Below, piece after piece: positions 26,686 to 42,466 of a DNA stretch of 64,000 nt. Below the pieces are notes generated by a model. That model was given only the letters and a program-made list of their open reading frames with translations. It did not search any database and was not told the DNA's origin. This DNA is from Candidatus Doudnabacteria bacterium. Its GTDB lineage: Bacteria; Patescibacteriota; Doudnabacteria; UBA920. The stretch spans positions 93,210-157,209 of the forward strand of contig PLYC01000013.1 in NCBI GenBank assembly GCA_003151625.1. The letters are read 5' to 3'. Within the stretch, counting starts at the first letter, position 1; each line of letters opens with the position of its first letter. The position numbers and the translations under genes are program-made.

Positions 26686-27549
26686 CTACCCAACTTTATT
26701 ATCAGTTCGTGGCAACACTAGCTTTTCCAGCTTGGCTTTAACTACCCCATTTTCCGGTTCAAGGGCTTGGGCTTTATGTAAAATTTCACGGGCCAATTGC
26801 CCGTTGTTGAGCTTTAAATACACATTACTCAAGCTAATGTAATATTTAACGGAAGGTTCAAGAGAGATTGCGGTCTCGAAATTCTTTACCGATTCAGGAA
26901 AATTCCCCGCCCCTTCCAAACTTAGGCCTAGGTTATAATAGCGGTTTGGCTGGGTGGAATCAAGAGCTAAAGATTTTTGATAATGTTCGGCCGCTTTGGC
27001 GAATTGCTTATTTTGGTAAAGGCAATAACCTAAACGCGCCTGGAATTCCGGGTTTCCGGGTTCGTGGTTGCAGAGATATTCATAAATATCCCTGGCATCT
27101 GAATGGTTTGACTGTTCCAAATAAAATTTTCCAAGCAAATCGTAATTGGATAAATTCTTGGGCTGCAATTTTATCATATCCAAATAGTAGGCTTCGCTTT
27201 TTACTTCGTGGGTGGTAATTGGGGCGGCGGCAACAGGGGCTTTAAAACCGGGCAGTTTAACATTATTAAAGATTTTCTGCATTTTGTAGCCGCCTATTGA
27301 GTGAGGCCTTAAGTCCTTGGCTTCCAAAATAAAGTTCCAGATTTTTCTGACCCAAAATTTTAGAAATGAGGCGATTTTTGAAAAAGCTTCGGCAGGCAGG
27401 CCTTTAGCCAAAAGTTTTTGTTGGGCGCCAACTTCCAAAGGCGCTTGTTGTGCCTCGGAGACGGCCTCCGGCAAGCGCCTAAGGATAATTAGCATTATCC
27501 CCAAAACCGCAAAAATAAATATAATATTGGGAAGAATTTGGTAGCTCAA
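26686..27549 (-). CDS. TPR-repeat protein with N-terminal TM anchor
   Basis: Repeated A..Y..G/LG..Y helical-repeat pattern. 287 aa. Confidence 0.65.
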   Translation of the reverse strand: MSYQILPNIIFIFAVLGIMLIILRRLPEAVSEAQQAPLEVGAQQKLLAKGLPAEAFSKIASFLKFWVRKIWNFILEAKDLRPHSIGGYKMQKIFNNVKLPGFKAPVAAAPITTHEVKSEAYYLDMIKLQPKNLSNYDLLGKFYLEQSNHSDARDIYEYLCNHEPGNPEFQARLGYCLYQNKQFAKAAEHYQKSLALDSTQPNRYYNLGLSLEGAGNFPESVKNFETAISLEPSVKYYISLSNVYLKLNNGQLAREILHKAQALEPENGVVKAKLEKLVLPRTDNKVG

Positions 27550-27696: not shown

Positions 27697-27790
27697 GGCG
27701 TCATTCTGAGCCCCTAACGCGCCATCGGGGCGAAGAATCCCTATTAAATTAGAGATCCTTCACTCGGGCGCACTCGTTCAGGATGACGCC
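27697..27790. mobile_element. ~94-bp miniature element with 13-14-bp terminal inverted repeats (MITE-like)
   Basis: ggcgtcattctgag...tcaggatgacgcc. The interior is ~80% identical to the reverse complement of the element at 30233-30327. Confidence 0.55.
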
Positions 27791-27816
27791 GGGAAGGAAG
27801 TGTTTTGCGATTAAGC

Positions 27817-28398
27817 CTAGTTTCCCAGTACAAATCTAGCAAAACGTTTTACCACTACCTTCTCCCCCATTTTTGCAACGGCTTCGCCGATTAAATCTTT
27901 GACTTTAATGTCGGGATTTTTTGCAAATGGTTGCTCCATTAAGCAGGCTTCTTCAAAATATTTGGCAAGTTTACCTTCCAAAATTTTGTTAACCATATCT
28001 TCCGGTTTACCCTTAATTTGTTCTTTGTAGATTTCCTTTTCTTTATCCACAACTTCTACCGGGACATCGGCTGTAGAAACATACAACGGGTTTGCGGCTG
28101 CTATATGCAAAGCCAATTCTTTGGCCAAATGCTTAAAATCGTCCGTACGAGCCACAAAGTCTGTTTCGCAGTTAATTTCCACCAAAACGCCCACGCGGCT
28201 GCCCGGATGGATATAGGCTTCCACAAGGCCTTCATTGGCAACACGGTCGGCCTTTTTGCCGGCTTTAAGTGTGCCTTTTTTGCGCAAAATTTCCACGGCC
28301 TTGGTCTTGTCGCCCCCGGCCTCGGTTAATGCGCCCTTAATTTCCATCATCCCAGCCCCGGTTTGTTCGCGGAGTTCTTTTATTAGATTTTTAGACAT
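27817..28398 (-). CDS. tsf: translation elongation factor Ts
   Basis: MSKNLIKELREQTGAGMMEIKGAL UBA-like N-terminus. 193 aa. Sits downstream of rpsB. Confidence 0.9.
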   Translation of the reverse strand: MSKNLIKELREQTGAGMMEIKGALTEAGGDKTKAVEILRKKGTLKAGKKADRVANEGLVEAYIHPGSRVGVLVEINCETDFVARTDDFKHLAKELALHIAAANPLYVSTADVPVEVVDKEKEIYKEQIKGKPEDMVNKILEGKLAKYFEEACLMEQPFAKNPDIKVKDLIGEAVAKMGEKVVVKRFARFVLGN

Positions 28399-28570
28399 AA
28401 GTTTACGAAGTACCTGCCCACCAATGTTAATTTTTATAGTAGCACTGATGGTAATTATCCATTGTCTGTACTATGAAAGTTTGCTTTGGCAGGCGGGCGA
28501 AATTTTACGAACTTACGAAAGGACAAACTTCGTAAGTTCGTACCTATTCGTACTTCGTAAAATCAGTTAA

Positions 28571-29299
28571 TTATTTAGTTTCAATTAATTTATCAGCTTC
28601 TTTCGTTACCGGTGTCGCTTGTCTTCCTTCGGTTATGGCTTCGGATATAACCGAGCACATAAGTTCAATACTTTTTGTGGCGTCGTCGTTGCAGGGAATA
28701 ACGTAGTCTATGCCTTCGGGGCTGCAGTTGGTGTCTACCAGGCCGATAATTTTTACTTTGCTTTTTTGCGCTTCCTTTACCGCAATGGAATCGTGTTTGA
28801 CATCGGTGACAAAAATCGCGTCAGGGAGTTTTTTCATGCTTTGGATGCCTTCGAACAATTTTCTCATTTTTTCGATTTCGCGTTCTATGAGCAAACGTTC
28901 TTTTTTGGTGTAGCGGCTTTCCAATTCACCGGAGGCTTTTAAGCTTTCCAATTTTTCCATTTTGCGGATGGTTTTTTGAATGGTCTTAAAGTTGGTAAAG
29001 GTTCCGCCGAGCCAGCGGACGTTAACGTACGGCACGGCCGCGGCTATGGCTGAATTTTTTAAAATTTCTTTGCTCTGGCGCTTTGTGCCAACAAACAAAA
29101 TTATGCCGCCGCGTGAAGTTGTTTCCTTGGCAAACTTAGCCGCTTTTTCCAAACCTTGTTTGGTTTTTTCCAAATCCAGAATGTGGATGTTGTTGCGAGT
29201 TGTAAAAATAAACGGCTTCATTTTGGGGTTCCACCTGGAGGTGGTATGGCCAAAGTGCGCGCCGCTCTTCATCAACTCTAAAAGGGTGATGTCTTTCAT
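28571..29299 (-). CDS. rpsB: 30S ribosomal protein S2
   Basis: GAHFGHTTSRWNPKM. 242 aa. rpsB-tsf synteny. Confidence 0.95.
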   Translation of the reverse strand: MKDITLLELMKSGAHFGHTTSRWNPKMKPFIFTTRNNIHILDLEKTKQGLEKAAKFAKETTSRGGIILFVGTKRQSKEILKNSAIAAAVPYVNVRWLGGTFTNFKTIQKTIRKMEKLESLKASGELESRYTKKERLLIEREIEKMRKLFEGIQSMKKLPDAIFVTDVKHDSIAVKEAQKSKVKIIGLVDTNCSPEGIDYVIPCNDDATKSIELMCSVISEAITEGRQATPVTKEADKLIETK

Positions 29300-29550
29300 T
29301 GTGGTTTTATGTAGTGTGCGGCGGTGTAGCGGCGGGTATTGCCCACCATTAATGGAGGCCGAGTAGGCCTTCCGCTACAGCGCATAAAATACACGCTACA
29401 TTATCCTTTTCCTTCCATTCTCTTTATCCCCTGCTTTGGCTCTCGAGCCGCACGGGACAGGATAATTATCCGAGAATGTGCTTAATTAATAACTGGCTTA
29501 TTATAACAGGGGTTGACGAAAATGGCAAGAGCTGGTAAAATGTCTGTACT

Positions 29551-29895
29551 ATGGGCGAAATAGACAGAGGCGCCAAAGACTATATCGATCAAATTCCGAT
29601 TGAAGAATTGGATTATTTGGGTGTAGAAACCGAGAAGGGCAGGCTGCAAGCAATCGAAGCTTTAGCCGGTTCTTTATTGGTTGCTTTAGAGAGGAAGGAT
29701 TACGAAGTTGCTCAAAGAAAAGCCCATTTGATATTTAGAACAAGTTTGCTATTTAATGAAAGATCTGTGCCCATTTCAGAAAAAGGCTTGGAGTTATTTA
29801 AAAGACAATTGGTTAAAGAGCTTTATTCAAATACAGGTAGTCCTAGCAGTTTAGATATTTTATCAAAAGGGAAAAGAATAGAAGATAAGAAATAA
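29551..29895 (+). CDS. hypothetical protein
   Basis: 114-aa ORF. No motif. Confidence 0.4.
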   Translation: MGEIDRGAKDYIDQIPIEELDYLGVETEKGRLQAIEALAGSLLVALERKDYEVAQRKAHLIFRTSLLFNERSVPISEKGLELFKRQLVKELYSNTGSPSSLDILSKGKRIEDKK

Positions 29896-29913
29896 TTAAT
29901 TTAAACAGAATTC

Positions 29914-30174
29914 ATGAAACCCACAATCCATCCCCAATTTAATACAGACGTAGTAGTAACCTGCGCTTGCGGCGCTACTTTTACCACCGGTTCAACGGCC
30001 AAGACTTTGCATACTGAAGTCTGTAGCCAGTGCCATCCGTTTTACACGGGTAAGCAAAAATTGCTTGATGCCGCCGGTTCCATCGACAAATTCAAAAAGC
30101 GCTCCGCCGCCGCCGTTCACATTAAAGCCGCGGTTAAACCCAAAAAGGAACGCAAGAGCAGAACAAAGAAGTAA
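29914..30174 (+). CDS. rpmE: 50S ribosomal protein L31
   Basis: [28 protein letters not shown]...[13 protein letters not shown]. Confidence 0.9.
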
Positions 30175-30184
30175 CTTATTTAAA

Positions 30185-30213
30185 AGGCCCTCTTTAGTTG
30201 GAGGGTCTTTTTG
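30185..30213 (+). terminator. intrinsic terminator after rpmE
   Basis: ggccctc-tttagttg-gagggtc followed by ttttt. Confidence 0.6.
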
Positions 30214-30232
30214 TGGTAAGATTAGTTTATTC

Positions 30233-30327
30233 GGCGTCATCCTGAGGGAGTGCGTCCGACCGAAGGATCTCTGTCAAAAGAAGAGATTCTTCGCCCCTCA
30301 GAGACATTCGGGGTTCAGAATGACGCC
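30233..30327. mobile_element. ~95-bp miniature TIR element, same family as 27697-27790 in opposite orientation
   Basis: ggcgtcatcctgag...ttcagaatgacgcc. Lies immediately upstream of the true prfA start. Confidence 0.55.
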
Positions 30328-30339
30328 AAGGAGATAGTT

Positions 30340-31437
30340 ATGGATTCCACTTTTAAAAAAATAGCAGATGAGTACGAACAGCTAACCGAGCAAATGGCTT
30401 CGGGTAGTTCTTTCGATATGGCTAAATTAGGCAAAAGGCAGGCCGAGCTGGCGCCAATGGTGGGGAAGATCAAAGATTTAGGATTAAAGATTAAAGAACA
30501 AGAAGATAATAAAAAGCTTTTGGAAGACCAAGATTCGGAAATAAAATCGATGGCGCTGGACGAGGGTCGGCGGCTTGAATCTGAAATCTTAAATCTTAAA
30601 TCCTCGATCGAGGATTCCCTGTTGCCCAAGGATAAAAACGACGACAAAAATATAATCGTAGAAATTCGTGCCGGAGCCGGCGGTGACGAAGCCACCCTGT
30701 TTGTGGCGGAGATGTTTAGGGCTTACGGTAAGTTTGCGGAAGAACAGGGTTTTAAACCTCATATTGTTTCTTCTTCCCGTTCGGATGCGGGCGGTTTTAA
30801 AGAAGTAATCTTCGAAATCCACAGCCCCTTGAAGATTCCCATCAAGGGGCACGATGGGAATCTTCAAGGGGCGCCTTATGCTTTGTTTAAATACGAATCC
30901 GGCGTCCACCGCGTACAGCGCGTGCCGGAGACGGAAAAAAGCGGCCGCGTGCATACCTCTACCATAACCGTGGCCGTGTTGCCCATTTTGGAAGAAAAAG
31001 ACTACGCCATTGCGGATAAAGATCTGAACATCGAGGCAACTACATCTTCCGGCCACGGCGGGCAGAGTGTAAATACTACATATAGTGCTATCCGCATAAC
31101 CCATATCCCTACCGGTATAACCGCTCAGTGCCAGGATGAGCGTAGCCAGGCGCAAAACCGGGAGAAGGCCTTGGAAGTTATTCGCGCCCGCGTTGCCCAG
31201 CATTACGAGGAAATAGAAAGCAAAAAAGTGCGCGACCTTACAAAGTCTCAAATAGGAACCGGTGATCGGTCGGAGAAAATCAGAACTTATAATTTTCCCC
31301 AAGATCGTGTTACCGATCACCGTATTAACGAAAATTTTAACCAAATAAATTTGATTATGGAAGGCAAATTTGCCGATATTGTTGAAGCATTACAGAAAGC
31401 GGATTTGGAAGCAAAAAGGGAGGCGTTAAAGAATTGA
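30340..31437 (+). CDS. prfA: peptide chain release factor 1
   Basis: GGQ motif SSGHGGQSVNTT and PET (PxT) tripeptide. AAGGAG 6 nt upstream of ATG 30340. The track ORF begins earlier (30250) inside the miniature element. Confidence 0.9.
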   Translation: MDSTFKKIADEYEQLTEQMASGSSFDMAKLGKRQAELAPMVGKIKDLGLKIKEQEDNKKLLEDQDSEIKSMALDEGRRLESEILNLKSSIEDSLLPKDKNDDKNIIVEIRAGAGGDEATLFVAEMFRAYGKFAEEQGFKPHIVSSSRSDAGGFKEVIFEIHSPLKIPIKGHDGNLQGAPYALFKYESGVHRVQRVPETEKSGRVHTSTITVAVLPILEEKDYAIADKDLNIEATTSSGHGGQSVNTTYSAIRITHIPTGITAQCQDERSQAQNREKALEVIRARVAQHYEEIESKKVRDLTKSQIGTGDRSEKIRTYNFPQDRVTDHRINENFNQINLIMEGKFADIVEALQKADLEAKREALKN

Positions 31438-31443
31438 AAAGGT

Positions 31444-31470
31444 GTGACGGCAACATGAAGTTGCCGTCAC
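31444..31470. terminator. perfect 11-bp-stem hairpin between convergent prfA and a minus-strand ORF (bidirectional terminator)
   Basis: gtgacggcaac-atgaa-gttgccgtcac. Confidence 0.5.
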
Positions 31471-31500
31471 TGGTAAGGAATGCTACTACTCGTCCAGAAC

Positions 31501-31854
31501 TCAGTCCAGAAATTCCTTGTAATGGCGCAGCAGTTCGGCAACCTGGATATCGGTGAGGTAGATGAACTTGCGGGCATTATTCTGGAATGTTGCCCACACC
31601 ATCGCGAAAAGCGGGTATGGGGTGTTGAGCTCGACCTGCGTTAGGCCTTGCTCCATGATGGGGTACAAATCTGACCCGGATTCGTCAACGCCGTCACGGA
31701 ACTTGCGAAGTATTTCCAGGAACTCGGGTTCCGTAAAAGTTGCGCTGTGGATTTCATCTGTGTTGTTTTCCCGCAGCGTGTAGTATGTTGCCGACTTAGT
31801 TTGGGCTTTAATCACCCAAACCTCAGACTGTTGGCGGTTGATCACAGTAGGCAT
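31501..31854 (-). CDS. hypothetical protein
   Basis: 117-aa ORF. Confidence 0.45.
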   Translation of the reverse strand: MPTVINRQQSEVWVIKAQTKSATYYTLRENNTDEIHSATFTEPEFLEILRKFRDGVDESGSDLYPIMEQGLTQVELNTPYPLFAMVWATFQNNARKFIYLTDIQVAELLRHYKEFLD

Positions 31855-31906
31855 TTGCTCCTCCTTGGGTAGCTAGATAGTATAGTATTAAATATTGTTT
31901 GCGTCA

Positions 31907-32023
31907 ATGCAACCTACAATAAAAGATGTATTAAAAAAATACCATAAAATAGAAATAGAACTCCTGCTGGAGCATGTGTTGCGGAAACCAAACCCTTCGA
32001 CAAGCTCAGGGTTAGATTTATGA
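31907..32023 (+). other. 38-codon upstream ORF homologous to the PrmC N-terminus (partial 5' duplication). Its stop overlaps the prmC ATG (ATGA).
   Basis: MQPTIKDVLKKYHKIEIELLLEHVLRKPNPS vs PrmC MTIRQALIKYHCIEIELLLADLLGKSKEF. Confidence 0.35.
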
Positions 32024-32874
32024 CGATACGACAAGCATTAATTAAATATCACTGTATTGAAATTGAGTTGCTTCTTGCGGATCTCCTTGGTAAATCTAAG
32101 GAGTTTTTGTTTATGAATCCCGGGCACAGCTTATCAGCTGGGCAGCTTATAAGCTTATCAGCTCTTGTTAAACGCAGGGAGAGCGGTGAGCCGATGGCTT
32201 ATATTTTGGGGTATAAGGATTTTTATGGGTTAAAATTTAAAGTTAATCGCAACGTGTTAATCCCCCGCCCGGAGACGGAATGGGTGGTTGAAAGAATTAG
32301 GAATTATGAATTAGAAATTATGAATGGGAAACCATTTCGAGTCCTTGATGTCGGTACCGGAAGCGGGTGCATTGTTATAAGCTTAGCGAAATTGTTGCCA
32401 CCCTCCCCTAACCCCTCCCGTCAAGGGAGGGGAAAACTGCAGTTTTGCGCAAGTGACATGTCATCAGAAGCTTTAAAGATTGCCAAGCAAAATGCCAAAA
32501 AGTATAAAGTAAAAATTAAGTTTATTAAAAGCGACCTTTTAAAAAATATTAAGGGCAATTTTGACGTTATAATCGCAAACTTGCCATATGGATGGCGTGG
32601 GGTCAAAAACAGATTTTCTTCGGTTAAAGATGGATTAAAATTTGAGCCAAAGAAGGCTTTATATACATCGGAACGCGGTTTGCGGGAGATCCGCCGCTTG
32701 CTACAACAAGTCGCTTTGTTAAAAAATAAACCAAAGTTGGTTTATTTGGAATTTGACCCAAGACAAAAACGCGAGCTGGGATCACTAATAAAAAAATCCC
32801 TCCCAGGATCTAAAACAAAGTTTTATAAAGACTACAACGGTTTTTGGCGTTATGCGGAAGTTATTCCGTTATGA
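32020..32874 (+). CDS. prmC: release factor glutamine methyltransferase (HemK/PrmC)
   Basis: VLDVGTGSGCIVISLAK (motif I), IIANLPYGW (NPPY-like, here NLPY). Downstream of prfA. Contains a 12-aa GC-rich palindromic insertion. Confidence 0.8.
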   Translation: MTIRQALIKYHCIEIELLLADLLGKSKEFLFMNPGHSLSAGQLISLSALVKRRESGEPMAYILGYKDFYGLKFKVNRNVLIPRPETEWVVERIRNYELEIMNGKPFRVLDVGTGSGCIVISLAKLLPPSPNPSRQGRGKLQFCASDMSSEALKIAKQNAKKYKVKIKFIKSDLLKNIKGNFDVIIANLPYGWRGVKNRFSSVKDGLKFEPKKALYTSERGLREIRRLLQQVALLKNKPKLVYLEFDPRQKRELGSLIKKSLPGSKTKFYKDYNGFWRYAEVIPL

Positions 32875-33754
32875 TTTTTTGGAATTTTTCCAAAGTTTCC
32901 TGTCCATGCACGCGGACACGAGGGATACGCATTAAATCATCCAGATTTATTAGTTTCCCTTCATGCACAGTTACACCCATTACAAAGCCGGATTTTTTGG
33001 CTTGAGTAATATAAGAGTCGGTATAGTGGCCGTAAGGGTAAATTAAAATATTTGTGGTGGTTCCGAGATTGTTGTAAATGTCGGAAATAGATGCGGACAA
33101 GTTTTGAAAAATGTAGCTAGCTGTAAATTTAGGATTTTGTCCGTCAAAATGATTTTGAGTGTGCGAGACAATTTCATTGCCCTGGCTTTGGGCATTTTTT
33201 ATTTCTTCCCAAGGGGCATAAATATTGGTACCCTGCGAAGTTCCGGGGTTTTGTGTAATTATCCCAAAACTGCCCGTATAATTATATTTTTTTAAAATTG
33301 GCACGGCGTTTATAAACACATCTTCGTATCCGTCGTCAAAAGTAAATAACACCGGTTTTTTTGGCATAACAAATTTTCCCTGGCTGTAAAGATAAATATC
33401 CTCCAGAGTAACGCTGTTATACTTGTTATCGCTTAGCCATTTAACCTCCGCTTCAAAATTGGCGGTCGGCACGGTTAAGTCCTGCCGCACTTTATTGGCT
33501 TTTGTCGGCAAATCTTCAACATGGTGGTACATTAGAATGGGAATGGATAGCGTGCGGCCTTTTACTATGGCGTCATTAGGAACCGGCAGCGGCTCGTAGT
33601 CCTTTGGTGTTACCAATTTCGGGTATGTCTTGCCCCTCGGTTCGATTACAGTCACTTTTGGCATTTGGCGATCGAAATAAAAAAATCCTCCCGCCAATAC
33701 CAGGCAGGCGAGGATTAAAATGGACAATTGGATTGCTTTTTTCTTTAGGTACAT
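32861..33754 (-). CDS. polysaccharide deacetylase (NodB/CE4 domain) with N-terminal TM
   Basis: TFDDGYEDV and ILMYHHV motifs. Confidence 0.75.
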   Translation of the reverse strand: MYLKKKAIQLSILILACLVLAGGFFYFDRQMPKVTVIEPRGKTYPKLVTPKDYEPLPVPNDAIVKGRTLSIPILMYHHVEDLPTKANKVRQDLTVPTANFEAEVKWLSDNKYNSVTLEDIYLYSQGKFVMPKKPVLFTFDDGYEDVFINAVPILKKYNYTGSFGIITQNPGTSQGTNIYAPWEEIKNAQSQGNEIVSHTQNHFDGQNPKFTASYIFQNLSASISDIYNNLGTTTNILIYPYGHYTDSYITQAKKSGFVMGVTVHEGKLINLDDLMRIPRVRVHGQETLEKFQKIITE

Positions 33755-33900
33755 TGTAGTTTAAATTATAACATAAGTATAGCGTGCCCATTTATTGGGC
33801 TGCAGCCCAATAAATGGGCACGCTACAGCAAAGATCGTCCGGGCAATAAGAGAAAACAAAACCCGCCCTGTCATCGACAGGGCGGGTTTTAAAATCGTAA

Positions 33901-34602
33901 TTATTTCTTTTCTTCTTTTTTCTCTGACTTTTCTGCCTTTTCGGGTTTTGCACCGTCTTTGGCTTCGGCAACGGGTTTGTCTTCCGCCGCGCCTTCAACT
34001 TTGCTGACGTCTTCCACAACCGGCGCGGTTAATTCTGTTTCCACCTCTCTGGGCGGCTGGACTTTAACTATCATTTCATCGCCGGGTGTTATAATTTTAA
34101 CTTTGGCCGGAGCAATTAAGTCTTTAATGTGTATGGTCTCCTGTAAGGCTTGCAAGACATCCAGGCTGACCGGAATATTGTGGGGTAAATCCGCCGGCAA
34201 ACATTCTACTTCCACTTCATTTAATATTTTGACCAATACGCCGCCGAGCTGTTTTACCGCTTTGCTTTCGCCGGTAAATTCCAAAGCCACTTTGGCTTTG
34301 AGTTTTTCTGTCAGGCTTACCTGGTAAAAGTCCACGTGTGTCGGGACGCTGGTTAAATAGTGGCGTTGAAATTCGTGAATAAGTACCGGGTGGGTTTTAC
34401 CGTCATCGGTTATTAATTCCACAATTGTACTTTCCCCCGCTTTCCTTAAGAGTTTATCAAATTCCCTGGCATTAATAGAAAGAGATACTGTCGGAAGATT
34501 GTGTCCATACATAACAGCGGGTAACAGTCCAACTTTACGCATTTTTTGAGGATTTTCTTTTTTAACATCGCGAACCGATGCTTTGAGCTGTAGTTTTTCC
34601 AT
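33901..34602 (-). CDS. rplY: 50S ribosomal protein L25/general stress protein Ctc, with Lys/Glu-rich C-terminal tail
   Basis: MEKLQLKASVRDVKKENPQKMRKVGLLPAVMYGH. The track ORF extends to 34641. Probable start is the internal Met. Confidence 0.8.
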   Translation of the reverse strand: MEKLQLKASVRDVKKENPQKMRKVGLLPAVMYGHNLPTVSLSINAREFDKLLRKAGESTIVELITDDGKTHPVLIHEFQRHYLTSVPTHVDFYQVSLTEKLKAKVALEFTGESKAVKQLGGVLVKILNEVEVECLPADLPHNIPVSLDVLQALQETIHIKDLIAPAKVKIITPGDEMIVKVQPPREVETELTAPVVEDVSKVEGAAEDKPVAEAKDGAKPEKAEKSEKKEEKK

Positions 34603-34753
34603 TTTATTCCCTGTTCGGCTTTGCCCATCGGTTTTCATCATCGGATAATGATTACTCGCCTACTCACAAAACCTTAAAATTAAATCCTGATTATTCTAAC
34701 AAAAAACCCCTGCTTTGGCAAGGGTTAAAGTAAATTATGTTAAGTAGTGTGAT

Positions 34754-35197
34754 TTAACAGTTTGTTTTAGTTAGGCTGTTTTTGCTTGTAAGTGGATTCT
34801 GTGTAAAGCTGGCCACAAAATCGCCCTTAAAGCTTTTAAGTGCCTGGTGGATGCCGATGATTTCGTTAGTTTGAATGGGACCGAGTTTGTTGAACTTGGA
34901 GCTGTCCTGGCCGGTTAAGTCGGTAACCATGCCAACGCTAAAGACCTCGGGACCGCGAATTTCGACGTTGAACATTACCGAACTTTTGCATTTACTGCAG
35001 TCGGAGTGGATTAAAACCCTGGCTTCGCCGTAAAATTCGTCCTGCTCGCTTTCAATCACCCGGGTTTTATCCAGGTTATATTTAGCCCCGCAGATTGGGC
35101 ATTTAAGCATAATGCCGAGCCACTCTATAATTCTTTTGAAGTCAAAGTTTTTTCCGGCGGAGCCGGATCCCGCTCCGCGGGACATATCATTTCTCAT
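34754..35197 (-). CDS. hypothetical zinc-ribbon protein
   Basis: CPICGAKYN...CSKCKSS. Confidence 0.4.
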   Translation of the reverse strand: MRNDMSRGAGSGSAGKNFDFKRIIEWLGIMLKCPICGAKYNLDKTRVIESEQDEFYGEARVLIHSDCSKCKSSVMFNVEIRGPEVFSVGMVTDLTGQDSSKFNKLGPIQTNEIIGIHQALKSFKGDFVASFTQNPLTSKNSLTKTNC

Positions 35198-35221
35198 ATA
35201 CTTTTATGTTATCATAATTCT

Positions 35222-36322
35222 TTAAAACCGCAAAGCCTTGGATTGGACGGAGACGTTTTGCAGGACGCCAAGGAGCATTAAACAGACAATTAAAGAACTT
35301 CCTCCAGCCGAAACAAAAGGCAAAGGAATGCCAGTTACGGGCAAAAGGCCGATATTCATGCCAATATTAATTAACACATGGAAAAAGAAAAAGAAAAATA
35401 CGCCGCCGGCCAAATACATACCCAGGTCATCTTTGGCTTTTTGCATAATTTTAAGCAGCCTGAAAAGCAGAAAAAAATACAGGCATAACAGGCTGGCCGA
35501 GCCCAAAAAGCCAATTTCTTCACTGCTGGCCGCAAAGATAAAATCGGTTTGCCGTTCGGGTAAAAATTTACTTTGGCTTTCCACTCCTTTGCCCAGTCCC
35601 CTGCCTGTAAATTCTCCGCTACCCACGGCAATGGTTGCCTGGCGTACGTTGTAGCCGCGGCCATGCGGGTCGAGTCCCGGGTTTAAAAATACCTCAATGC
35701 GGCTTTTTTGAAAATCCTTTAAAACAAATTTCCAGGTAATGCCGGCAAAAACCAAAAAGGCTAAAAATAATATGGCTAAATATTTTTTCTTGATCGGGCT
35801 GATTAAAATAATTCCCAACCAAATACCGGAAATAATAAGCGCCGAACCCAAATCTGGTTCCAGCGCCACCAAAAAAGCCGGCACTAAGGCGTAAGCCAAT
35901 GACCAAAGAATGGTTTTGTAGGAATTAATTTGCCCGCGTTTTAAATATAGCAATCGCGCCAGACCTAAAATAACGGTAAACTTTATAAACTCCGCCGGCT
36001 GGAACCTGGTTATGCCAAAATCAACCCAGCGCCGGCCGCCGCGTATTAGCGAACCGAATACAGTTAGATATAAAAGTAATGAAACCAAGACGACGTAAAT
36101 AACGCGGTTAGTTTTGGCCAGCGCGTGATAATCAAAAAAACTCAAAAATAAAAAAGCCGCCAGGCCCATGCCCAAAAATATTAATTGACGATAAAATACC
36201 CCGGAGCTTCCGTCCGAGAGAGTGGTGGCGTACAAAGTCGCCAGCCCCGCCGCTACCAGCAGTAAGGTGCAAACCAACAGCGGGACATCAAAATATTTAA
36301 AACGGTTTAGAAAATTAAACAA
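35222..36322 (-). CDS. SEDS family peptidoglycan glycosyltransferase (FtsW/RodA)
   Basis: 10 TM. PFVSAGGSSLIV C-terminal motif. Confidence 0.85.
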   Translation of the reverse strand: MFNFLNRFKYFDVPLLVCTLLLVAAGLATLYATTLSDGSSGVFYRQLIFLGMGLAAFLFLSFFDYHALAKTNRVIYVVLVSLLLYLTVFGSLIRGGRRWVDFGITRFQPAEFIKFTVILGLARLLYLKRGQINSYKTILWSLAYALVPAFLVALEPDLGSALIISGIWLGIILISPIKKKYLAILFLAFLVFAGITWKFVLKDFQKSRIEVFLNPGLDPHGRGYNVRQATIAVGSGEFTGRGLGKGVESQSKFLPERQTDFIFAASSEEIGFLGSASLLCLYFFLLFRLLKIMQKAKDDLGMYLAGGVFFFFFFHVLINIGMNIGLLPVTGIPLPFVSAGGSSLIVCLMLLGVLQNVSVQSKALRF

Positions 36323-36373
36323 GGTTTTATCCTTTATCTTTTACCCGCGTGAATGATGAAGGATTAAGGGTAA

Positions 36374-37249
36374 TTATTGCTTGCCCGCGGAAGGGTGGCT
36401 AAGGTCAGAGGAGGAGTTAGTTTGGATAGTTGGAGCGGAAAGGTCGGTTGAGTCTAAGGTGTCGGTATCGGCGGTTACATCTACGCGGTTTAAACTCGGC
36501 GCGACTAAGTTGGGCCACAGCTGTTTATAAGCTCGGCGCTCAAACGGGGCGACCGTAAATTCGTCGCGCTGGCTGACGCCGATAATTTTATTATCTTGAT
36601 CAAATAACACCAGAGTTAATCGGACTTTGCTAATGGTATAAGGACTGTTGTTTAAAAAATCTCCTTGCGCCACAAATGCCAAAGGCGAGGTCTGCTCAAA
36701 TGTTTGTGGCAAAGATGTAGAGAAACTTACCGTAGGAATGGACAGTCTTTTTTGCCAAGGCAGAGTTTGAGGCAAATTAAAATCGGCATAGGAAATTTGT
36801 CCGCTCGGCGAGAAGGTTGGAGCCGTTATGTATTTGGTCTGGTTCGGGAGCAAAAAAAGTTTGTCCTGGTACTGGTAGATTTGTTGCTTTTGGGCATTGT
36901 AAAAAGTAAATGAAAAAGGCACGTTGTCCAAAGACAAATCCAAATTTTGGTTGCTAATTTGCACAACCGCGCCAAAGTCTTCGGGGCCTGAAGTGGTTAA
37001 AGTCACCAGCGAAATTTTTGGCGCCTGCGGGTTGGTAAAACTCGGCTTGGCCATTATGGCTCCCTGTTGGTAGCGAGCCAGCCAAGTTTTTTGCGACATG
37101 CTTTTGGAAATATAATAAGCCGGAATAATTGCCAAAAAAGCTATTACAACAACCCAAATAAGAGCCGGCGGGAATTGGGTTAAGTTTTTTTGAGCAAAAA
37201 GTTCAGCCTCCTGAATTTCCAGCTCAACTTTGTCTTTAAAAAGGGACAT
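36374..37249 (-). CDS. hypothetical membrane-anchored protein
   Basis: N-terminal TM. 291 aa. Confidence 0.5.
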   Translation of the reverse strand: MSLFKDKVELEIQEAELFAQKNLTQFPPALIWVVVIAFLAIIPAYYISKSMSQKTWLARYQQGAIMAKPSFTNPQAPKISLVTLTTSGPEDFGAVVQISNQNLDLSLDNVPFSFTFYNAQKQQIYQYQDKLFLLPNQTKYITAPTFSPSGQISYADFNLPQTLPWQKRLSIPTVSFSTSLPQTFEQTSPLAFVAQGDFLNNSPYTISKVRLTLVLFDQDNKIIGVSQRDEFTVAPFERRAYKQLWPNLVAPSLNRVDVTADTDTLDSTDLSAPTIQTNSSSDLSHPSAGKQ

Positions 37250-37324
37250 TTTTGTTTAATTTGTTTAGATTTTTATGTTAATTTTAGTATAGCAAAGTTT
37301 GGGGTTTTTTGGTATTCTGTATGT

Positions 37325-37417
37325 AGAAGCGAAAGAGACGCGAAGACTGCAGCGCGAAAATAGACGCGAATTCGCGTACTGTTCGCTTGTGTCCGATTCG
37401 CGTTTGTATTCGCTTCT
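37325..37417. promoter_or_regulatory. 93-bp imperfect dyad made of 4+4 inverted (A/G)CGCGAA hexamers at ~12-bp spacing, ending 6 bp before the dnaE ATG
   Basis: agaagcgaa..acgcgaa..gcgcgaa..acgcgaa|ttcgcgt..ttcgct..ttcgcgt..ttcgcttct. Confidence 0.45.
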
Positions 37418-37422
37418 ATATT

Positions 37423-40400
37423 ATGACCTTTACCCATCTCCACTGCCATTCCCATTACTCCTTGCTGGACGGCCTTTCCAAGACCGAGCCGCTTATTGAG
37501 CGCGCCAAAGAGCTGGGAATGGACGCCTTGGCCGTGACCGACCACGGCGTTATGTACGGCACAATAGAATTTTACAACAAGTGCCGGGAGGTTGGGGTTA
37601 AACCGATTATCGGCCTGGAAGCATACATCGCGCCGCGGGGTATGGACGAAAAAGAAGGAAAAATAGACGCGGATTACCACCATTTAATTTTGCTCGCGCA
37701 AAATGATGCCGGGTATAAAAATTTAATTAAATTGACGACCGAGGCGCACCTGCGGGGTTTTTACTATAAGCCGCGGATAGATCTGGAGTTATTAACCAAG
37801 CACAGCGAAGGTTTGGTTTGCCTTACCGGATGCCAGCGCGGGGAAATTGCCCGCGCGGTAACAAACAAATCCGAAGACGAGGCGCAAAAAGTTTTGGAAA
37901 AATATCTGGCTATTTTTACTCACGAGCGGTTGTTCGTGGAAATCCAAAGAAACAGCAGAGTGAGAAATTCAAAAGAAGATGAGCTTAATCAAAAACTGAT
38001 TAAGCTGGCCAAAAAAAATAATTTAAACGTAGTTGCCACCGCCGACTGCCACTATATATACCCGGAGGACGCGGAAGCCCAGGATATTTTGGTGTGCATT
38101 GGCACCGGACGCACGGTTAATGACATAGATCGTCTGGATATGCGTAGCCACGATCTTTCTTTAAAATCCGCAGAGCAAATGATGGAACTTTTTGCCGATA
38201 TTCCGGAAGCCGTGGAAAATACGCAAAAAGTTGTAGACTTGTGCAATTTGGAAATTTTAATTGACCAGCGCTATTTCCCAAAGGTAAAAATCCCCGAAGG
38301 CTTGACCTCGGAACAATATTTAATAAATACGACTTACGAAAAGGCTTTGCCGCTTTACGGCAAAGACGGAGCCATCCCTGAGGAAATAAAAAAACGCATA
38401 GATTATGAACTGAATATTATTTGCAAAAAAGGTTTTGACACCTATTTTTTAATGGTGGCCGACGTGGTTCAGGGCGCGCATAAAACTGGCGCCATTACCA
38501 ACACCAGAGGCAGTGCGGCCGGTTCCATTGTGGGAAAAATTTTGGGAATAACGAATGTCGATCCCTTGTATTACGAACTGCCCTTTGAGCGTTTTTTAAC
38601 TATGCATCGCCCAACCCCGCCCGATATTGACCTAGATATTGCCGACAACCGGCGCGATGAGGCCATAGAATATATTACCGAACATTACGGCAAAGACAAA
38701 GTCGCGCAAATTATAACTTTTGGAACAATGGCTGCCAGGGCTGCAGTACGCGATGCCGGTCGCGCCTTGGCTGTTCCGTATTCAAAATGCGATCAAATTG
38801 CCAAAATGATTCCCATTGGCAAACAGGGTTTCCAAATGACACTGGATAAAGCTTTGGAAAAAAGTCCGGAACTGAAAGAAATTTATGAACGTGATCCCGA
38901 GACCCGCCATGTTCTGGAAATTGCCAAAAAATTGGAAGGCTGCGCCCGCCATGCCTCTATGCACGCGGCCGGGATTGTTATTACCCCAACTCCGCTGACC
39001 GACTATATGCCGCTCCAAAAAGAACCGGACGGCGAAAGAATTATTACGCAGTACGACATGTACGCGCTGGACGTTAACGCCAACGGCAAAGCTTTGGGCG
39101 TGGTTAAGCTCGACCTTTTGGGAATTCGCAATTTATCGATTTTGGAATCTGCCGTAAAAACCGCTGAAAAGCGGCACGGAGTCAAGATTGACATTTATAA
39201 TCTCCTCCACCCCGATCCAAAAACATTTAAGTTACTTTCAGAAGGCCTGACTTTCGGCGTTTTCCAGCTGGGGTCTTCCGGCATGACCCGCTATTTGCGG
39301 GAGTTGGAGCCTTCCACAATTTTTGACATTATGGCCATGATAGCCCTATACCGCCCGGGCCCAATGCAATTTATCCCCGACTATATTGCGCGCAAGCACG
39401 ACAAAAGCCTGATAAAATATTTTGACTCGGCTCTGGAGAAAATTTTGCACCGCACTTACGGGATTTTAGTTTACCAGGACGATTTGTTGACCATCGCGCA
39501 CGACTTGGCCGGCTATACCTGGGAAGAAGTGGACAAGTTCCGCAAAGCCGTGGGTAAAAAAATTCCCGAGGATATGGCCAAGCAAAAAATTAAATTTGTC
39601 CAGGGTTGCCAGGATACCAGTAAGTGGTCTTACCAAAAAGCCGAGCAAATTTGGACGTGGATTGAGCCGTTCGCGGCTTACGGTTTTAACAAAGCGCACT
39701 CCGCCTCCTATTCCGTGGTTTCCTACCAGACCGCCTATATGAAGGCGAATTTTCCCGTGGAATTTATGGCCGCGTTTATGACCGCCGAGTCCGGCGATGA
39801 AGACAAAATTTATGAAGCCGTGGAAGACTGCGAACAGATGGGAATTAAAGTTTTGCCCCCGGACGTTAACGAAAGCTTAGGTGATTTTACAGTAGTCGAC
39901 GAAAAAACTATTCGGTTTGGCTTGAACGCGATTAAGAATTTAGGGAGTGATGTAATAGAGAAGATTATAGATTTAAGATTAAAGATTGAAGAAGACGCAA
40001 GTTTGGATTCCGGCCTTAATCTTAAATCTTCCAACTTAAATCTTTTTAACTCTCTAGAGGACTTCCTTCTAAAATCCCACACCAAAAATCTCAACAAAAA
40101 ATCCTGGGAAGCTTTGGTCAAAGCGGGTGCTCTGGATACTTTTGGCGAACGCGGCCAATTGTTGAATAACACAGAAGAAGTTTTGGACTTTGTGCGGCAG
40201 CATTTTAAAAATGAAGCCAGCGGCCAAAATTCGCTGTTTGGAAAATCGGTTGATGCCGGAAAAATAAAACTTCGCCCGTCCCAGCCGGCCACCAAAGAGG
40301 AAAAACTGCTTTGGGAAAAGGAACATTTGGGCATGTATGTTTCCGCACACCCGCTTGACGTTTACAGTAAAGTACTTTCCACGCTTAGAACAGTAAAAAG

Positions 40401-40932
40401 TTTGTCGCTCGATGAGCTTGGGGCGAACGTGGTTATGGGTGGAATAATTTCGCGGCTAAAAAAAACCTTAACGCGTAAAAACGATCCCATGGCATTTTTT
40501 ACCTTGGAAGATATGACCGGCAGTATTGAAGTTTTGGTTTTTCCAAAAGTTATGGAAAAAAGCCTGCCATTTTTAACCGACGACAGGATTGTGCAGGTTA
40601 TTGGGAGACTTTCCGATAAAGATGAGGAATTTAAATTAATTGCCGATGAAATAAAAGAACTGCCGAGCGACGATTTGTACAATATGGCGCTTTCGGAAAT
40701 GGAAAGAAGCAAGCAGGTGGTTATTCACATGCAAAGCCTGGCAAATATGGAAGCTTTAAACAAGATTAAAGATATTTTGCAAAAACATCCGGGCAATGTC
40801 CAAGTGTTTCTCTCGGTCGGCTCCGGCCGCCTCGCCAAAAAAATAAAAACCCAAAGCCAGGTGGCGATGAGTAATGAGCTAATGGCGGAGCTGAGGTCGG
40901 TTTCAGAGATTGCTATGGTGGATACGAATTAG
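37423..40932 (+). CDS. dnaE: DNA polymerase III alpha subunit
   Basis: N-terminal PHP MTFTHLHCHSHYSLLDG. ~1170 aa. Confidence 0.95.
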   Translation: MTFTHLHCHSHYSLLDGLSKTEPLIERAKELGMDALAVTDHGVMYGTIEFYNKCREVGVKPIIGLEAYIAPRGMDEKEGKIDADYHHLILLAQNDAGYKNLIKLTTEAHLRGFYYKPRIDLELLTKHSEGLVCLTGCQRGEIARAVTNKSEDEAQKVLEKYLAIFTHERLFVEIQRNSRVRNSKEDELNQKLIKLAKKNNLNVVATADCHYIYPEDAEAQDILVCIGTGRTVNDIDRLDMRSHDLSLKSAEQMMELFADIPEAVENTQKVVDLCNLEILIDQRYFPKVKIPEGLTSEQYLINTTYEKALPLYGKDGAIPEEIKKRIDYELNIICKKGFDTYFLMVADVVQGAHKTGAITNTRGSAAGSIVGKILGITNVDPLYYELPFERFLTMHRPTPPDIDLDIADNRRDEAIEYITEHYGKDKVAQIITFGTMAARAAVRDAGRALAVPYSKCDQIAKMIPIGKQGFQMTLDKALEKSPELKEIYERDPETRHVLEIAKKLEGCARHASMHAAGIVITPTPLTDYMPLQKEPDGERIITQYDMYALDVNANGKALGVVKLDLLGIRNLSILESAVKTAEKRHGVKIDIYNLLHPDPKTFKLLSEGLTFGVFQLGSSGMTRYLRELEPSTIFDIMAMIALYRPGPMQFIPDYIARKHDKSLIKYFDSALEKILHRTYGILVYQDDLLTIAHDLAGYTWEEVDKFRKAVGKKIPEDMAKQKIKFVQGCQDTSKWSYQKAEQIWTWIEPFAAYGFNKAHSASYSVVSYQTAYMKANFPVEFMAAFMTAESGDEDKIYEAVEDCEQMGIKVLPPDVNESLGDFTVVDEKTIRFGLNAIKNLGSDVIEKIIDLRLKIEEDASLDSGLNLKSSNLNLFNSLEDFLLKSHTKNLNKKSWEALVKAGALDTFGERGQLLNNTEEVLDFVRQHFKNEASGQNSLFGKSVDAGKIKLRPSQPATKEEKLLWEKEHLGMYVSAHPLDVYSKVLSTLRTVKSLSLDELGANVVMGGIISRLKKTLTRKNDPMAFFTLEDMTGSIEVLVFPKVMEKSLPFLTDDRIVQVIGRLSDKDEEFKLIADEIKELPSDDLYNMALSEMERSKQVVIHMQSLANMEALNKIKDILQKHPGNVQVFLSVGSGRLAKKIKTQSQVAMSNELMAELRSVSEIAMVDTN

Positions 40933-41389
40933 TTTGTAGTTGGTAGTTGGTAGTTTGTAGCCAAACAGCGGATGTAGCGGCGGCCACTGGCCGCCGTTTA
41001 TGTCACGTTGCGATCTGTCAGTATATAAAAAAGTTCAACGCGGGCTCCAGAGAAAAGACAATCTCTGAAGTCCGCGTTATTGAATACCGCCGCGAGGGGC
41101 GGCTGGGGTTGTGGGTCGCGCCGCGCCGGGAATCTGGCGGGCGGGTTGCGCTGAATGGGATCTGCTGCTCGCTAGCCGTCGTTGGCATGGGTGATAACCC
41201 ATCTTAGGGCTATCCCAAGAAGCAGAAAGGAGACAGCGAGGATTGTCCAATCTTTTGGCGTGAGATGGGTGAGGTCTTCCCAGAAGTCCCGCATGGGAAT
41301 CTGTTCCTCGATCAGGAGCGCTATAGGGAGGATCATTGCATATCTCCAGTTGGCCTGCCACCATGTCTTCGGTGGCAGGGATTGAGAAG

Positions 41390-41674
41390 CTACGGCTTCG
41401 TCTGACTGCTGGGGGCATTCGCTTGGCGAAGCGCCGCCGTCAGATCGCTGTCGGCGCTGGTGTGCTTTTTGCTCCACCAATAGCTTGCGGCGAAGCCCAG
41501 GACTACAAACAAAAATGCGGCCACGATCACGTAAAACGGGTTTCCTATGATGGTTTGCATTTTCTCTCCAGTGTGGTAAATTCGCAAACAAACCGCTGGT
41601 TCACCCTTGTTGGTAAATCCTCCTGCGGTTTGTTTCGCTAGGCTCAAAATAGCACTACCGTGCCTTGGCGTCAA
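41390..41674 (-). CDS. small membrane protein in a GC-rich atypical segment (possibly frameshifted with 41172-41591)
   Basis: MQTIIGNPFYVIVAAFLFVVLGFAASYWW TM helix. The local GC content looks far above the flanking sequence. Confidence 0.3.
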   Translation of the reverse strand: MTPRHGSAILSLAKQTAGGFTNKGEPAVCLRIYHTGEKMQTIIGNPFYVIVAAFLFVVLGFAASYWWSKKHTSADSDLTAALRQANAPSSQTKP

Positions 41675-42018
41675 TGCCTTAAAAAATGACCTCGGATACG
41701 GGCTTTGGATTTGTCGTAAATATGACGAACAGTAGTGCTAAATTTAGGGTGTGGAAAACATTCTTGTCAGAGTTTTATTGGTATGTTATAGTAATTTCAG
41801 TTCATCAAGCGTTGATCCGAACAACCAATTCGGGGAGTTTGAAACAAATTGTAATAAATCTGTTATGTTCTAGAGCCATAACGGATGAAAAGTTTTCTGA
41901 TGCTAAACATCAGGAAAATTCTGGGACGGAAACGTCCTGCGCAGCAGGGCCCCAGGATTGGGTTATCAAATTTTGATAGCTTAATCTTGGGGCTTTTACG
42001 TATTTTAAAGTCCCATTA

Positions 42019-42454
42019 GTGTGTCATCCCGACCGAGTCGAATGCATCTGAGGCGAGTGGAGGAATCCCTTATCTTTTGTTTATGCAAGACAGGCAGTAT
42101 TTTGTATACATAATGGCCAGCCATAGCGGAACTTTATATATTGGAGTTACTAGTGACTTGTATAAAAGAGTTTATCAGCACAAAAATAATTTAATTGAAG
42201 GTTTTACCAAGAAGTATGAGTGCCATAAGTTAATTTATTTTGAAGATACTTCAGATGTCGAAGGTGCAATTTTAAGAGAAAAGCAACTAAAGAACTGGAA
42301 CAGAAAGAAGAAAGAATTTTTAATTAAAACAAAAAATCCAAGTTGGAAAGATTTAAGCTTAGATTGGAAATAGCTAATATTTAAGGGATCCCCCACTCCC
42401 CCTCGACTCGTCACCCAAAGGGTGACTCGCCCGGGGTAGGTCGGGATGACACAC
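42019..42454. mobile_element. 436-bp element with perfect 16-bp TIRs carrying a GIY-YIG nuclease gene, inserted 12 bp upstream of thrS
   Basis: gtgtgtcatcccgacc ... ggtcgggatgacacac. Subterminal ...gaggaatccc resembles the miniature elements. Confidence 0.6.
42077..42373 (+). CDS. GIY-YIG nuclease family protein (~98 aa)
   Basis: YFVYIMASHSGTLYIGVTSDLYKRVYQH. Confidence 0.8.
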   Translation: MFMQDRQYFVYIMASHSGTLYIGVTSDLYKRVYQHKNNLIEGFTKKYECHKLIYFEDTSDVEGAILREKQLKNWNRKKKEFLIKTKNPSWKDLSLDWK

Positions 42455-42466
42455 TAAAGGAAATTT

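Follow-up and report, generated by a model that had tools for sequence, protein, structure and literature searches.

The 64-kb stretch of contig PLYC01000013.1 from a Candidatus Doudnabacteria bacterium analyzed here (the window, to which motif counts, gene calls and repeat listings refer unless stated otherwise) carries three loci, designated E1, E2 and E3, that are bounded by inverted repeats, and one of them encloses ssn, a gene for a small GIY-YIG nuclease. E1 (27697-27790, 94 bp, no strand assigned) lies between the stop codon of tsf (27817-28398, minus strand) and the start of a TPR gene (26686-27549, minus strand). It is a gene-less inverted doublet of two GGCGTCAT-type repeat units, called SRM units after the published system described below, in which an A-type unit pointing to the right is followed by an 8-nt spacer and a B-type unit pointing to the left. 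The left unit (27697-27742, plus strand) reads GGC-GTC-ATTCT-GA-GCCCC..GGGGC-GA-AGAAT-C-CCT and the right unit (27751-27790, minus strand) GGC-GTC-ATCCT-GAACGAGTGCGCCCGAGTGA-AGGAT-C-TCT; the termini of the element are GGCGTCATTCTGA and TCAGGATGACGCC. E2 (30233-30327, 95 bp, no strand assigned) occupies the space between the terminator of rpmE (29914-30174, plus strand) and the ribosome-binding site of prfA (30340-31437, plus strand). It is also a gene-less inverted doublet, in the orientation opposite to E1, with a B-type unit (30233-30272, plus strand), a 9-nt spacer and an A-type unit (30282-30327, minus strand), both assigned by direct reading of the sequence, and its termini are GGCGTCATCCTGA and TCAGAATGACGCC. 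The two doublets have 13-nt inverted termini in common (GGCGTCATYCTGA), and their interiors, aligned in opposite orientation, are 79% identical over 48 nt and 88% identical over 41 nt.

E3 (42019-42454, 436 bp, plus strand) is a complete SRM-ssn-SRM cassette. A perfect GTGTGTCATCCCGACC stands at either end, and the inverted repeat lengthens to 19 nt (TTAGTGTGTCATCCCGACC), reaching 42015-42458. The left C-type unit (42019-42072, plus strand) reads GTGT-GTC-ATCCC-GACC..GGA-GGAAT-C-CCTTA, with a single C·A mismatch in the arm, and the right C-type unit (42382-42454, minus strand) has a long interior that holds a hairpin of its own, GTCACCC..GGGTGAC; the two also have the subterminal GGRGGRATCCCTTA in common. 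Between them lies ssn (42083-42373 including the stop codon, plus strand, PF01541), the start of which was taken from the alignment of homologues. The junction with thrS (42455-42469, plus strand) consists of 12 nt with the ribosome-binding site AAGGAA followed by the thrS ATG at 42467 (gene 42467-44203, plus strand), and E2 similarly ends 12 nt ahead of the prfA start codon. An earlier sequence-only reading had described E1 to E3 as a family flanked by terminal inverted repeats (TIRs), and its description of the sequence was borne out: the lengths of 94 and 95 bp, the inverted ends and the likeness of the E1 and E2 interiors were confirmed, the gene calls agreed with intergenic positions beside tsf and prfA, and E3 does have 436 bp with perfect 16-bp TIRs, in fact part of the 19-nt repeat, and does lie 12 bp upstream of thrS.

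The shared core that had been proposed for the element ends was recovered as GTCATYCYGA at all six of them. The window contains seven matches to this motif, where 0.18 were expected and none of 100 shuffles reached seven; the six ends account for all but one, and the seventh match (52905), with no partner or 3' motif around it, is probably a chance occurrence. A search of the window that allowed a single mismatch gave 13 matches against 8 expected, none convincing, and the census of the window stood at six units at three loci. A generic detector (GTC and a 5-nt arm, then the complementary arm and C) was dropped as unspecific (19 matches against 16.6 in shuffles). ARAGORN found neither a tRNA nor a tmRNA in the window. 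The three loci are real and non-random, and together they make up a single superfamily of cassettes with inverted repeats that is linked to a small GIY-YIG nuclease.

The units follow a common frame, (GGC or GTGT)-GTC-[5-nt arm ATYCY]-GA, a variable interior, the complementary arm RGRAT, C and (TCT or CCTTA), and in 6/6 of the window units GTC is directly 5' of the arm and C directly 3' of its complement. They are 40-73 nt long; the outer stem has 5 bp and is followed by a GA/GA internal loop, and the interior, 20-50 nt, is variable. E1 and E2 each combine one A-type unit (interior hairpin GCCCC..GGGGC) with one B-type unit (interior GAGTGCG..CGA), while the C-type units of E3 (GTGTCATCCCGACC..GGRGGRATCCCTTA) stand one on each side of the gene. 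The free stem position in 80 distinct GGCGTCAT-type metagenome units was T..A 16 times, C..G 63 times and mismatched once (counts uncorrected for phylogeny), and where the two arms at a gene are unlike each other, compensatory double changes are often the reason (L040, L071, L076, L020 and L025). What had been taken for terminal repeats would instead be the 5' parts of oriented hairpin recognition motifs, and not transposase-binding sites.

E3 holds just one open reading frame (ORF), the product of which is a GIY-YIG protein (PF01541, E=3.5e-15) with a single domain; neither an HUH/Y1 tyrosine transposase nor a DDE domain was found in the element. The GIY-YIG domain spans residues 4-76 of the 95-aa query (7-79 counted from the ATG), with no second domain. 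The 98-aa GIY-YIG protein of the sequence-only reading was thus correct as to family and as to the length of the frame opened by TTG at 42077, but homologues begin at the ATG at 42083, which gives 96 aa. More than 4000 homologues of the window Ssn were found. The residues invariant across 29 aligned relatives were motif residues including the Tyr-x-Gly of the second motif (Y18, G20), R28, H32, E65 and N84. No NCBIfam model matched the E3 protein, and its sole PDB match was a distant one, UPF0213 BH0048 (entry 1zg2).

A system of this kind was described by Chenal et al. (2025, Nat Commun 16:2388, PMC11893778). SsnA of N. meningitidis is a 94-aa single-domain GIY-YIG protein (CDD cd10448), and its target is the hairpin repeat NTS (CGTCATTCCCGCGMAVGCGGGAATCYRG), which it binds solely as single-stranded DNA and solely on that strand (PMC11893778). 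Cleavage occurs a few nucleotides upstream of the motif, and the enzyme is inactive on double-stranded DNA and on RNA; single-strand, strand-specific binding and hydrolysis of the GTCAT-reading strand 5' of the motif were reported for four homologues (PMC11893778). Mutagenesis showed that cutting depends most on the three bases (GTC) before the palindrome, and binding most on the C that follows it (PMC11893778). The generalized repeat, SRM, described as an inverted repeat of 20-50 nt, was found on both sides of 42% of the homologues (PMC11893778). A literature search for a GIY-YIG TIR element or for later work on Ssn returned nothing beyond this paper.

The association of gene and repeat was found well beyond the window. 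A scan of species-representative genomes gave at least 600 matched stretches, 598 of the 600 listed being confirmed relatives, and the best 80 loci were kept. The proteins at these 80 loci are 50-66% identical to the window Ssn, and the hosts comprise lineages of the candidate phyla radiation (CPR), Chloroflexota, Acidobacteriota, Cyanobacteria, Clostridia, Proteobacteria, Bifidobacterium and others. When the 300 nt on the upstream side of the gene were compared with the 300 nt on the downstream side and the best inverted repeat was scored, 50/74 loci reached a score of at least 12, compared with 1/67 controls shifted by 1 kb. The GTCAT strand of the upstream unit was in the sense of the gene in 31 loci and antisense in 6. 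The repeat at the relatives is a hairpin, the frame of which is conserved while the stem covaries, for example TGTCATTCCCGCGAAAGCGGGAATCCAG, GTCATACCGGCGAATGCCGGTATCCAG and TGTCATCCTGAACTTGTTTCAGGATCCAT. The published NTS motif of Neisseria was found exactly at L058 and with a difference in the first base at L021, L061 and L070, and the window Ssn is 60-65% identical to the proteins at these loci. The likeness to these proteins makes the window Ssn a probable member of the SsnA clade.

The unit type of E1 and E2, GGCGTCATYCTGA..GAAGRATCTCT, has gene-carrying counterparts of its own. A metagenome scan for this type found L107 (3365-3750, 386 bp), in which GGCGTCATTCTGA..GAAGAATCTCT and an inverted A-type partner bracket a 94-aa ssn; the stop codon of the gene overlaps the right unit, and the order, B-type left and A-type right, is that of E2. 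In L214, from a Doudnabacteria genome, GGCGTCAT-type units stand on both sides of an ssn closely related to that of L107. Ssn of the L107/L214 type is 48% identical to the window Ssn and, because the E1/E2 unit type flanks this different subfamily, E3 is not the partner or parent of E1 and E2. Doublets of the E1/E2 family were also found upstream of other genes in L116, where the downstream ORF has an N-terminus that we take to be GreA-like, and in L084 (rpmE and prfA). E1, E2, the L116 doublet and the two L084 doublets align as B>spacer<A, and the ORF-less doublets, with spacers of 5-10 nt, look like exact ORF deletions of L107/L214-type cassettes. The window holds one ssn gene and no second, and no close L107-type Ssn was attributed to the source contig in the protein collection, so that E1 and E2 look like orphans on this contig, or may be served in trans by the E3 protein. 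The proposed relationship between miniature inverted-repeat transposable elements (MITEs) and an autonomous partner therefore stood in part: the loci form one superfamily in which short copies appear to be ORF-less derivatives of gene-carrying copies, but E3 is not the partner of E1 and E2.

The sites were compared with those in four syntenic relative genomes identified via DnaE (80-84% DnaE identity), namely L081-L083 (three assemblies of one genome), L084, L085 and L086, and with one much closer relative, L093, the genes of which mostly have 96-98.7% nucleotide identity to the window. The TPR-tsf spacer is 267 bp in the window, with E1, and 84 bp in L081, 95 bp in L085 and 87 bp in L086, all three without a unit; in L093 an unrelated 226 bp lies between genes that are 98% identical (L084 and L087 do not cover this spacer). 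The rpmE-prfA spacer, which holds E2 in the window, has no unit in L081, L085 and L086, and in L093 it has an unrelated palindromic block (L087 does not cover it). L084 has a B>..<A doublet there that ends 5 nt ahead of the prfA ATG, and another doublet upstream of rpmE. Upstream of rpsB, a site that L087 does not cover, the window has a different palindromic element, where L093 has a gene-less C-type doublet. Since L093 lacks E1 and E2, yet has a C-type doublet where the window has none, the cassettes are indicated to turn over quickly between near-identical genomes.

At the rpmE-prfA site the 98% identity to L093 stops at window position 30229, 4 nt short of E2. To the right of E2 it falls from 98% to 85.7% in prfA and remains at 78-93% up to 32862, after which it returns to 96%. 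The low-identity tract, window 30353-32860 (prfA and prmC) against L093 3407-5421, is 78-93% identical between flanking genes of 96-98.7%. That it starts at E2 points to DNA imported by recombination, with the repeat as the boundary. In Neisseria, genes next to dRS3 have been reported to show lower identity, which parallels the drop at E2. Short blocks of palindromic or direct repeats take the place of E2 in the rpmE-prfA spacer of relatives: GCATTTAGCC..GGCTAAATGC in L093 (3290-3385) and CTAGACGCTAAC repeats in L081 (3060-3150). It appears that a number of small repeat families, unrelated to one another, compete for these intergenic sites.

These comparisons bear on the possibility that the repeats act in cis as regulatory RNA hairpins of tsf, prfA and thrS, be it as attenuators, as terminators or as stabilizers of the mRNA, the GIY-YIG gene being incidental. 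The positions of E2 and E3, which both end at a ribosome-binding site 12 nt from a start codon, would suit such a role, and whole doublets fold better than shuffled sequence (z -2.2 to -3.8). On the other hand, the same units adjoin unrelated genes in both orientations, and the orthologous prfA and tsf sites are without units in L081, L085, L086 and L093, with L084 keeping a doublet at prfA. The units were not flagged as terminators, and Rfam gave no match at the gathering threshold anywhere in the window, the matches at relaxed thresholds (E1, E3 and the upstream block) being at chance level only. In addition, the association of the repeat with ssn holds across phyla and SsnA does not bind RNA (PMC11893778). 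Because contexts vary, orthologous sites mostly lack units and SsnA has no RNA binding, a regulatory function of the hairpins is very improbable, and conserved regulatory hairpins at orthologous positions, the alternative named in the sequence-only reading, were not borne out at the prfA and tsf sites.

Upstream of thrS, the window and L087 both have SRM-ssn-SRM (the L087 Ssn has 88% protein identity), L081 has SRM-37 nt-SRM without a gene, L086 has a 254-aa ORF with a lone right unit, L085 has nothing and L084 has a cassette of another kind, in which 16-bp TIRs enclose a PDDEXK_3 gene. In L081 and L086 the thrS site has kept repeats but lost ssn. L093 covers no E3 site: it diverges after window position 41803, and the contig then ends. 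Genes 81-88% identical to the window ssn occupy two sites, one upstream of thrS, as in L087, and one flanked by tmk and thyA, as in L088-L092 (81-82% identical, with the same compact geometry), and the right SRM unit abuts the ribosome-binding site of the next gene in the window, L081, L086 and L087 (thrS) and in L090 (thyA). A check for target-site duplications found no shared direct repeat in the flanks of E1, E2, E3, L087, L088 and L090; TA on both sides was seen at E3 only, among the elements compared. Insertion polymorphism, which the sequence-only reading had named as a further check, was present in that cassettes differ between near-identical genomes (L093), but the alleles are replacements and not clean empty sites.

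Several other features were observed around these sites. The PDDEXK_3 (PF13366) gene of L084 (14561-15056, directly upstream of thrS) encodes 135 aa and is flanked by perfect 16-bp inverted repeats, CAGACCGCGGATACGC; it is a second kind of TIR-flanked small-nuclease cassette at the landing site of E3. Also upstream of thrS, roughly 200 nt (41795-41997) may be the gene of a small RNA, with a promoter-like TTGTCA-17-TATAGT (41764-41792) at one end and a strong terminator (41949-41993) at the other; L081, L084, L085 and L086 have the sequence conserved upstream of thrS, it had no Rfam match, and the ORF at 41686-41976 that overlaps it is probably spurious. Another palindromic family, TGTAGCGGCGG..CCGCTACA, occurs at 29302-29394 and 40970-41002, and its copy upstream of rpsB is replaced by an SRM doublet in L093. 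In L081 (22624), L082 (22644) and L083 (14158) a single C-type SRM unit stands alone just upstream of dnaB and overlaps the 5' end of the called gene in one assembly. Units of this kind can distort start-codon calls. Within dnaE, the window has an in-frame AT-rich palindromic block, AGATTTAAGATTAAAGATTGAAGA..TCTTAAATCTTCCAACTTAAATCT (39956-40056), and at the corresponding codons of L093 (12556-12647) stands another in-frame block, palindromic as well but of different sequence, the dnaE genes being about 96% identical. The AGATTTARGATTAAAGATT repeat also forms inverted arms inside prfA (30465-30498 and 30574-30605). These look like palindromic elements inserted in frame in the essential genes dnaE and prfA.

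E1, E2 and E3 probably belong to the Ssn/SRM system, E3 as an ssnA-family cassette and E1 and E2 as ORF-less doublets of a second SRM subtype. Like the published members (PMC11893778), they have a single-domain GIY-YIG protein of about 95 aa, the gene of which is bracketed by inverted hairpin repeats, an oriented motif with GTC(A/T)Y 5' and C 3' of the palindrome, further copies of the repeat in intergenic DNA (here E1 and E2) and neighboring genes that are unusually divergent among strains. They differ in that the host is a Doudnabacteria-like CPR bacterium (Patescibacteria are unmentioned in PMC11893778), that the units are longer, with the GA/GA loop and the variable interior, and are missed by the published search string, and that the window has two SRM subtypes within 15 kb but one ssn gene. 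The present comparison also documents inverted doublets that have no gene and replacement between strains, neither of which is in PMC11893778. The loci are therefore a fresh CPR example of a family and repeats already described in 2025, and not the unusual new type of mobile element that had been envisaged.

A number of observations weigh against this interpretation. The published degenerate string, HGTCWYN(0-2)YYVSBRHN(0-5)WNVSBRGN(0-2)RNCYNB, matched 0/6 window units and had no match elsewhere in the window, because it permits at most 5 loop bases and the interiors here have 20-50 nt, and it matched within only 25 of the best 80 homologue loci that were kept; the string is a search heuristic and not a definition. 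Single units fold no better than shuffles (z -0.6 to +0.8), and the evidence for pairing is covariation uncorrected for phylogeny. The copies within the window are only 79-88% alike, with no sign of a recent burst. The thrS-adjacent right unit is at the same position in genomes with just 80-83% DnaE identity (measured for L081 and L086), a pattern that resembles long vertical inheritance more than insertion on several occasions. Finally, clean empty sites were not found, the spacers being too diverged at 80-84% DnaE identity and the L093 alleles being other palindromic blocks; the alternative alleles at all three polymorphic sites are such blocks, and gain by homologous replacement is therefore indistinguishable from insertion.

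To our knowledge, GIY-YIG enzymes are hydrolytic, with no covalent intermediate and no known strand-transfer activity, so reinsertion of a cassette would need host functions. This consideration counts against a true autonomous transposon with miniature copies, in which the GIY-YIG protein would excise and reinsert the TIR-bounded element and mobilize E1 and E2 in trans. Such a transposon would explain why the insertion-sequence-like layout is kept across phyla, why the doublets resemble L107/L214-type elements with exactly the ORF deleted, why cassettes are present or absent among genomes with 96-98.7% identical genes and why closely related ssn genes occur at two different genomic sites. The authors of the 2025 paper themselves likened NTS-ssnA-NTS to an insertion sequence, to IS200/IS605 and to REP/RAYT, as a hypothesis, mobility not having been demonstrated (PMC11893778). 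We nevertheless regard a transposon of this kind as unlikely: the recognized strand differs between the two ends, so that any one single strand has one cleavable end, unlike IS200/IS605, neither a target-site duplication nor a clean empty site was found, the window copies are not near-identical and the E3 protein is not of the subfamily cognate to E1 and E2, which have a different unit type. The previously proposed mobilization by the GIY-YIG protein was thus not supported, here or in the literature.

Like the Ssn cassettes, TIR-bounded DDE insertion sequences and their MITEs have short terminal inverted repeats and occur in long gene-carrying and short ORF-less forms, but the Ssn cassettes have no DDE transposase and no target-site duplication, and what looks like their TIR belongs to a longer hairpin motif that is oriented and of which it makes up the 5' portion. 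IS200/IS605 elements, single-strand transposons of the 'peel and paste' kind, resemble them in subterminal hairpins recognized as single-stranded DNA, in cleavage offset from the hairpin and in the lack of terminal target duplication; they differ in catalytic fold and in having both ends cut on one strand, with hairpins that are not inverted copies, whereas the ends of the Ssn cassette are inverted and the cleavable strand switches. REP/REPIN/RAYT (TnpA_REP) systems are similar in layout: a hairpin repeat stands in inverted copies on either side of a nuclease gene that is present once, inverted doublets that have no gene (as REPINs) are dispersed in intergenic regions, there is no target-site duplication and the hairpin is recognized in single-stranded DNA (on the Ssn side, from the published homologues). 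RAYT, however, is an HUH/Y1 enzyme that forms a covalent 5'-phosphotyrosine link, while Ssn is a hydrolytic GIY-YIG nuclease. GIY-YIG homing endonucleases (I-TevI and the Seg proteins) have the same domain in a compact, selfish-looking cassette, with possible break- or nick-stimulated spread, but a DNA-binding domain follows at their C-terminus and their target is double-stranded DNA of the allele that lacks the element; Ssn consists of the one domain, and its motif lies inside its own cassette and is recognized in single-stranded DNA.

CPR bacteria commonly have DNA-uptake machinery. This would favor a host-domesticated system without selfish spread, in which Ssn and its repeats restrict or shape the recombination of incoming single-stranded DNA and the repeats are under selection at particular sites. 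The thrS-adjacent unit is held in place in the window, L081, L086 and L087, and in Neisseria the Ssn system lowers transformation by repeat-bearing DNA, with ssnA deletion raising it about 5-fold (PMC11893778). Against this, doublets are rapidly replaced between near-identical genomes, ssn is gone from the thrS site in L081 and L086 with the repeats remaining, the orphan doublets are of a subtype whose cognate gene is absent from the window and went undetected for the 425-kb source contig, and the different TIR-flanked small nuclease gene of L084 makes the thrS site look like a landing pad for selfish cassettes. A domesticated role stays plausible as a minority explanation because the thrS-adjacent unit has been long retained and there are no clean empty sites.

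For the Ssn/SRM cassettes themselves, a mechanism can be proposed from the properties of the published homologues. Ssn would nick single-stranded DNA in a hairpin-directed, strand-specific manner a few nucleotides 5' of the unit, as shown for homologues. As the units are inverted, the left end would be cleavable on the top strand and the right end on the bottom strand, and both cuts would fall at or just outside the outer boundaries of the cassette, on opposite strands. Nicking of incoming, replicating or repaired single-stranded DNA at the repeats would shorten or create recombination substrates, so that the cassettes and their flanks may become hot spots of allelic replacement, leading to the allele swapping that was observed. 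The cassettes would then probably spread by nick-stimulated recombination or gene conversion, that is by copying, and not by cut-and-paste transposition, while doublets would persist as non-coding remnants, recognizable in trans if a cognate Ssn is present. We entertain only tentatively the stronger proposal that SRM-ssn-SRM cassettes are autonomous mobile elements of a new mechanistic class, in which a GIY-YIG enzyme nicks single strands by hydrolysis, the nicks stimulate copying and the doublets that have no gene are the non-autonomous, REPIN-like forms.

What is new is the CPR host, the long unit variant, two co-resident subtypes with one gene in view, ORF-less doublets together with their full-length counterparts and turnover at the strain level. 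The Ssn/hairpin-repeat system is now placed in CPR bacteria with a long unit variant that the published pattern misses, and current surveys therefore probably undercount the family. The comparison with L093 provides direct evidence, lacking in the 2025 paper, of the gain, loss or swap of doublets over a short evolutionary time, and one doublet, E2, sits exactly at the edge of a recombination tract. Each pair of Ssn and repeat is a candidate sequence-specific cutter of single-stranded DNA for biotechnology, and two new candidate pairs are presented here. Whether these are selfish elements or a domesticated control of recombination becomes testable in a defined set of loci; if the cassettes do represent a new mechanistic class, streamlined CPR genomes would have their intergenic regions and recombination tracts actively reshaped by them.

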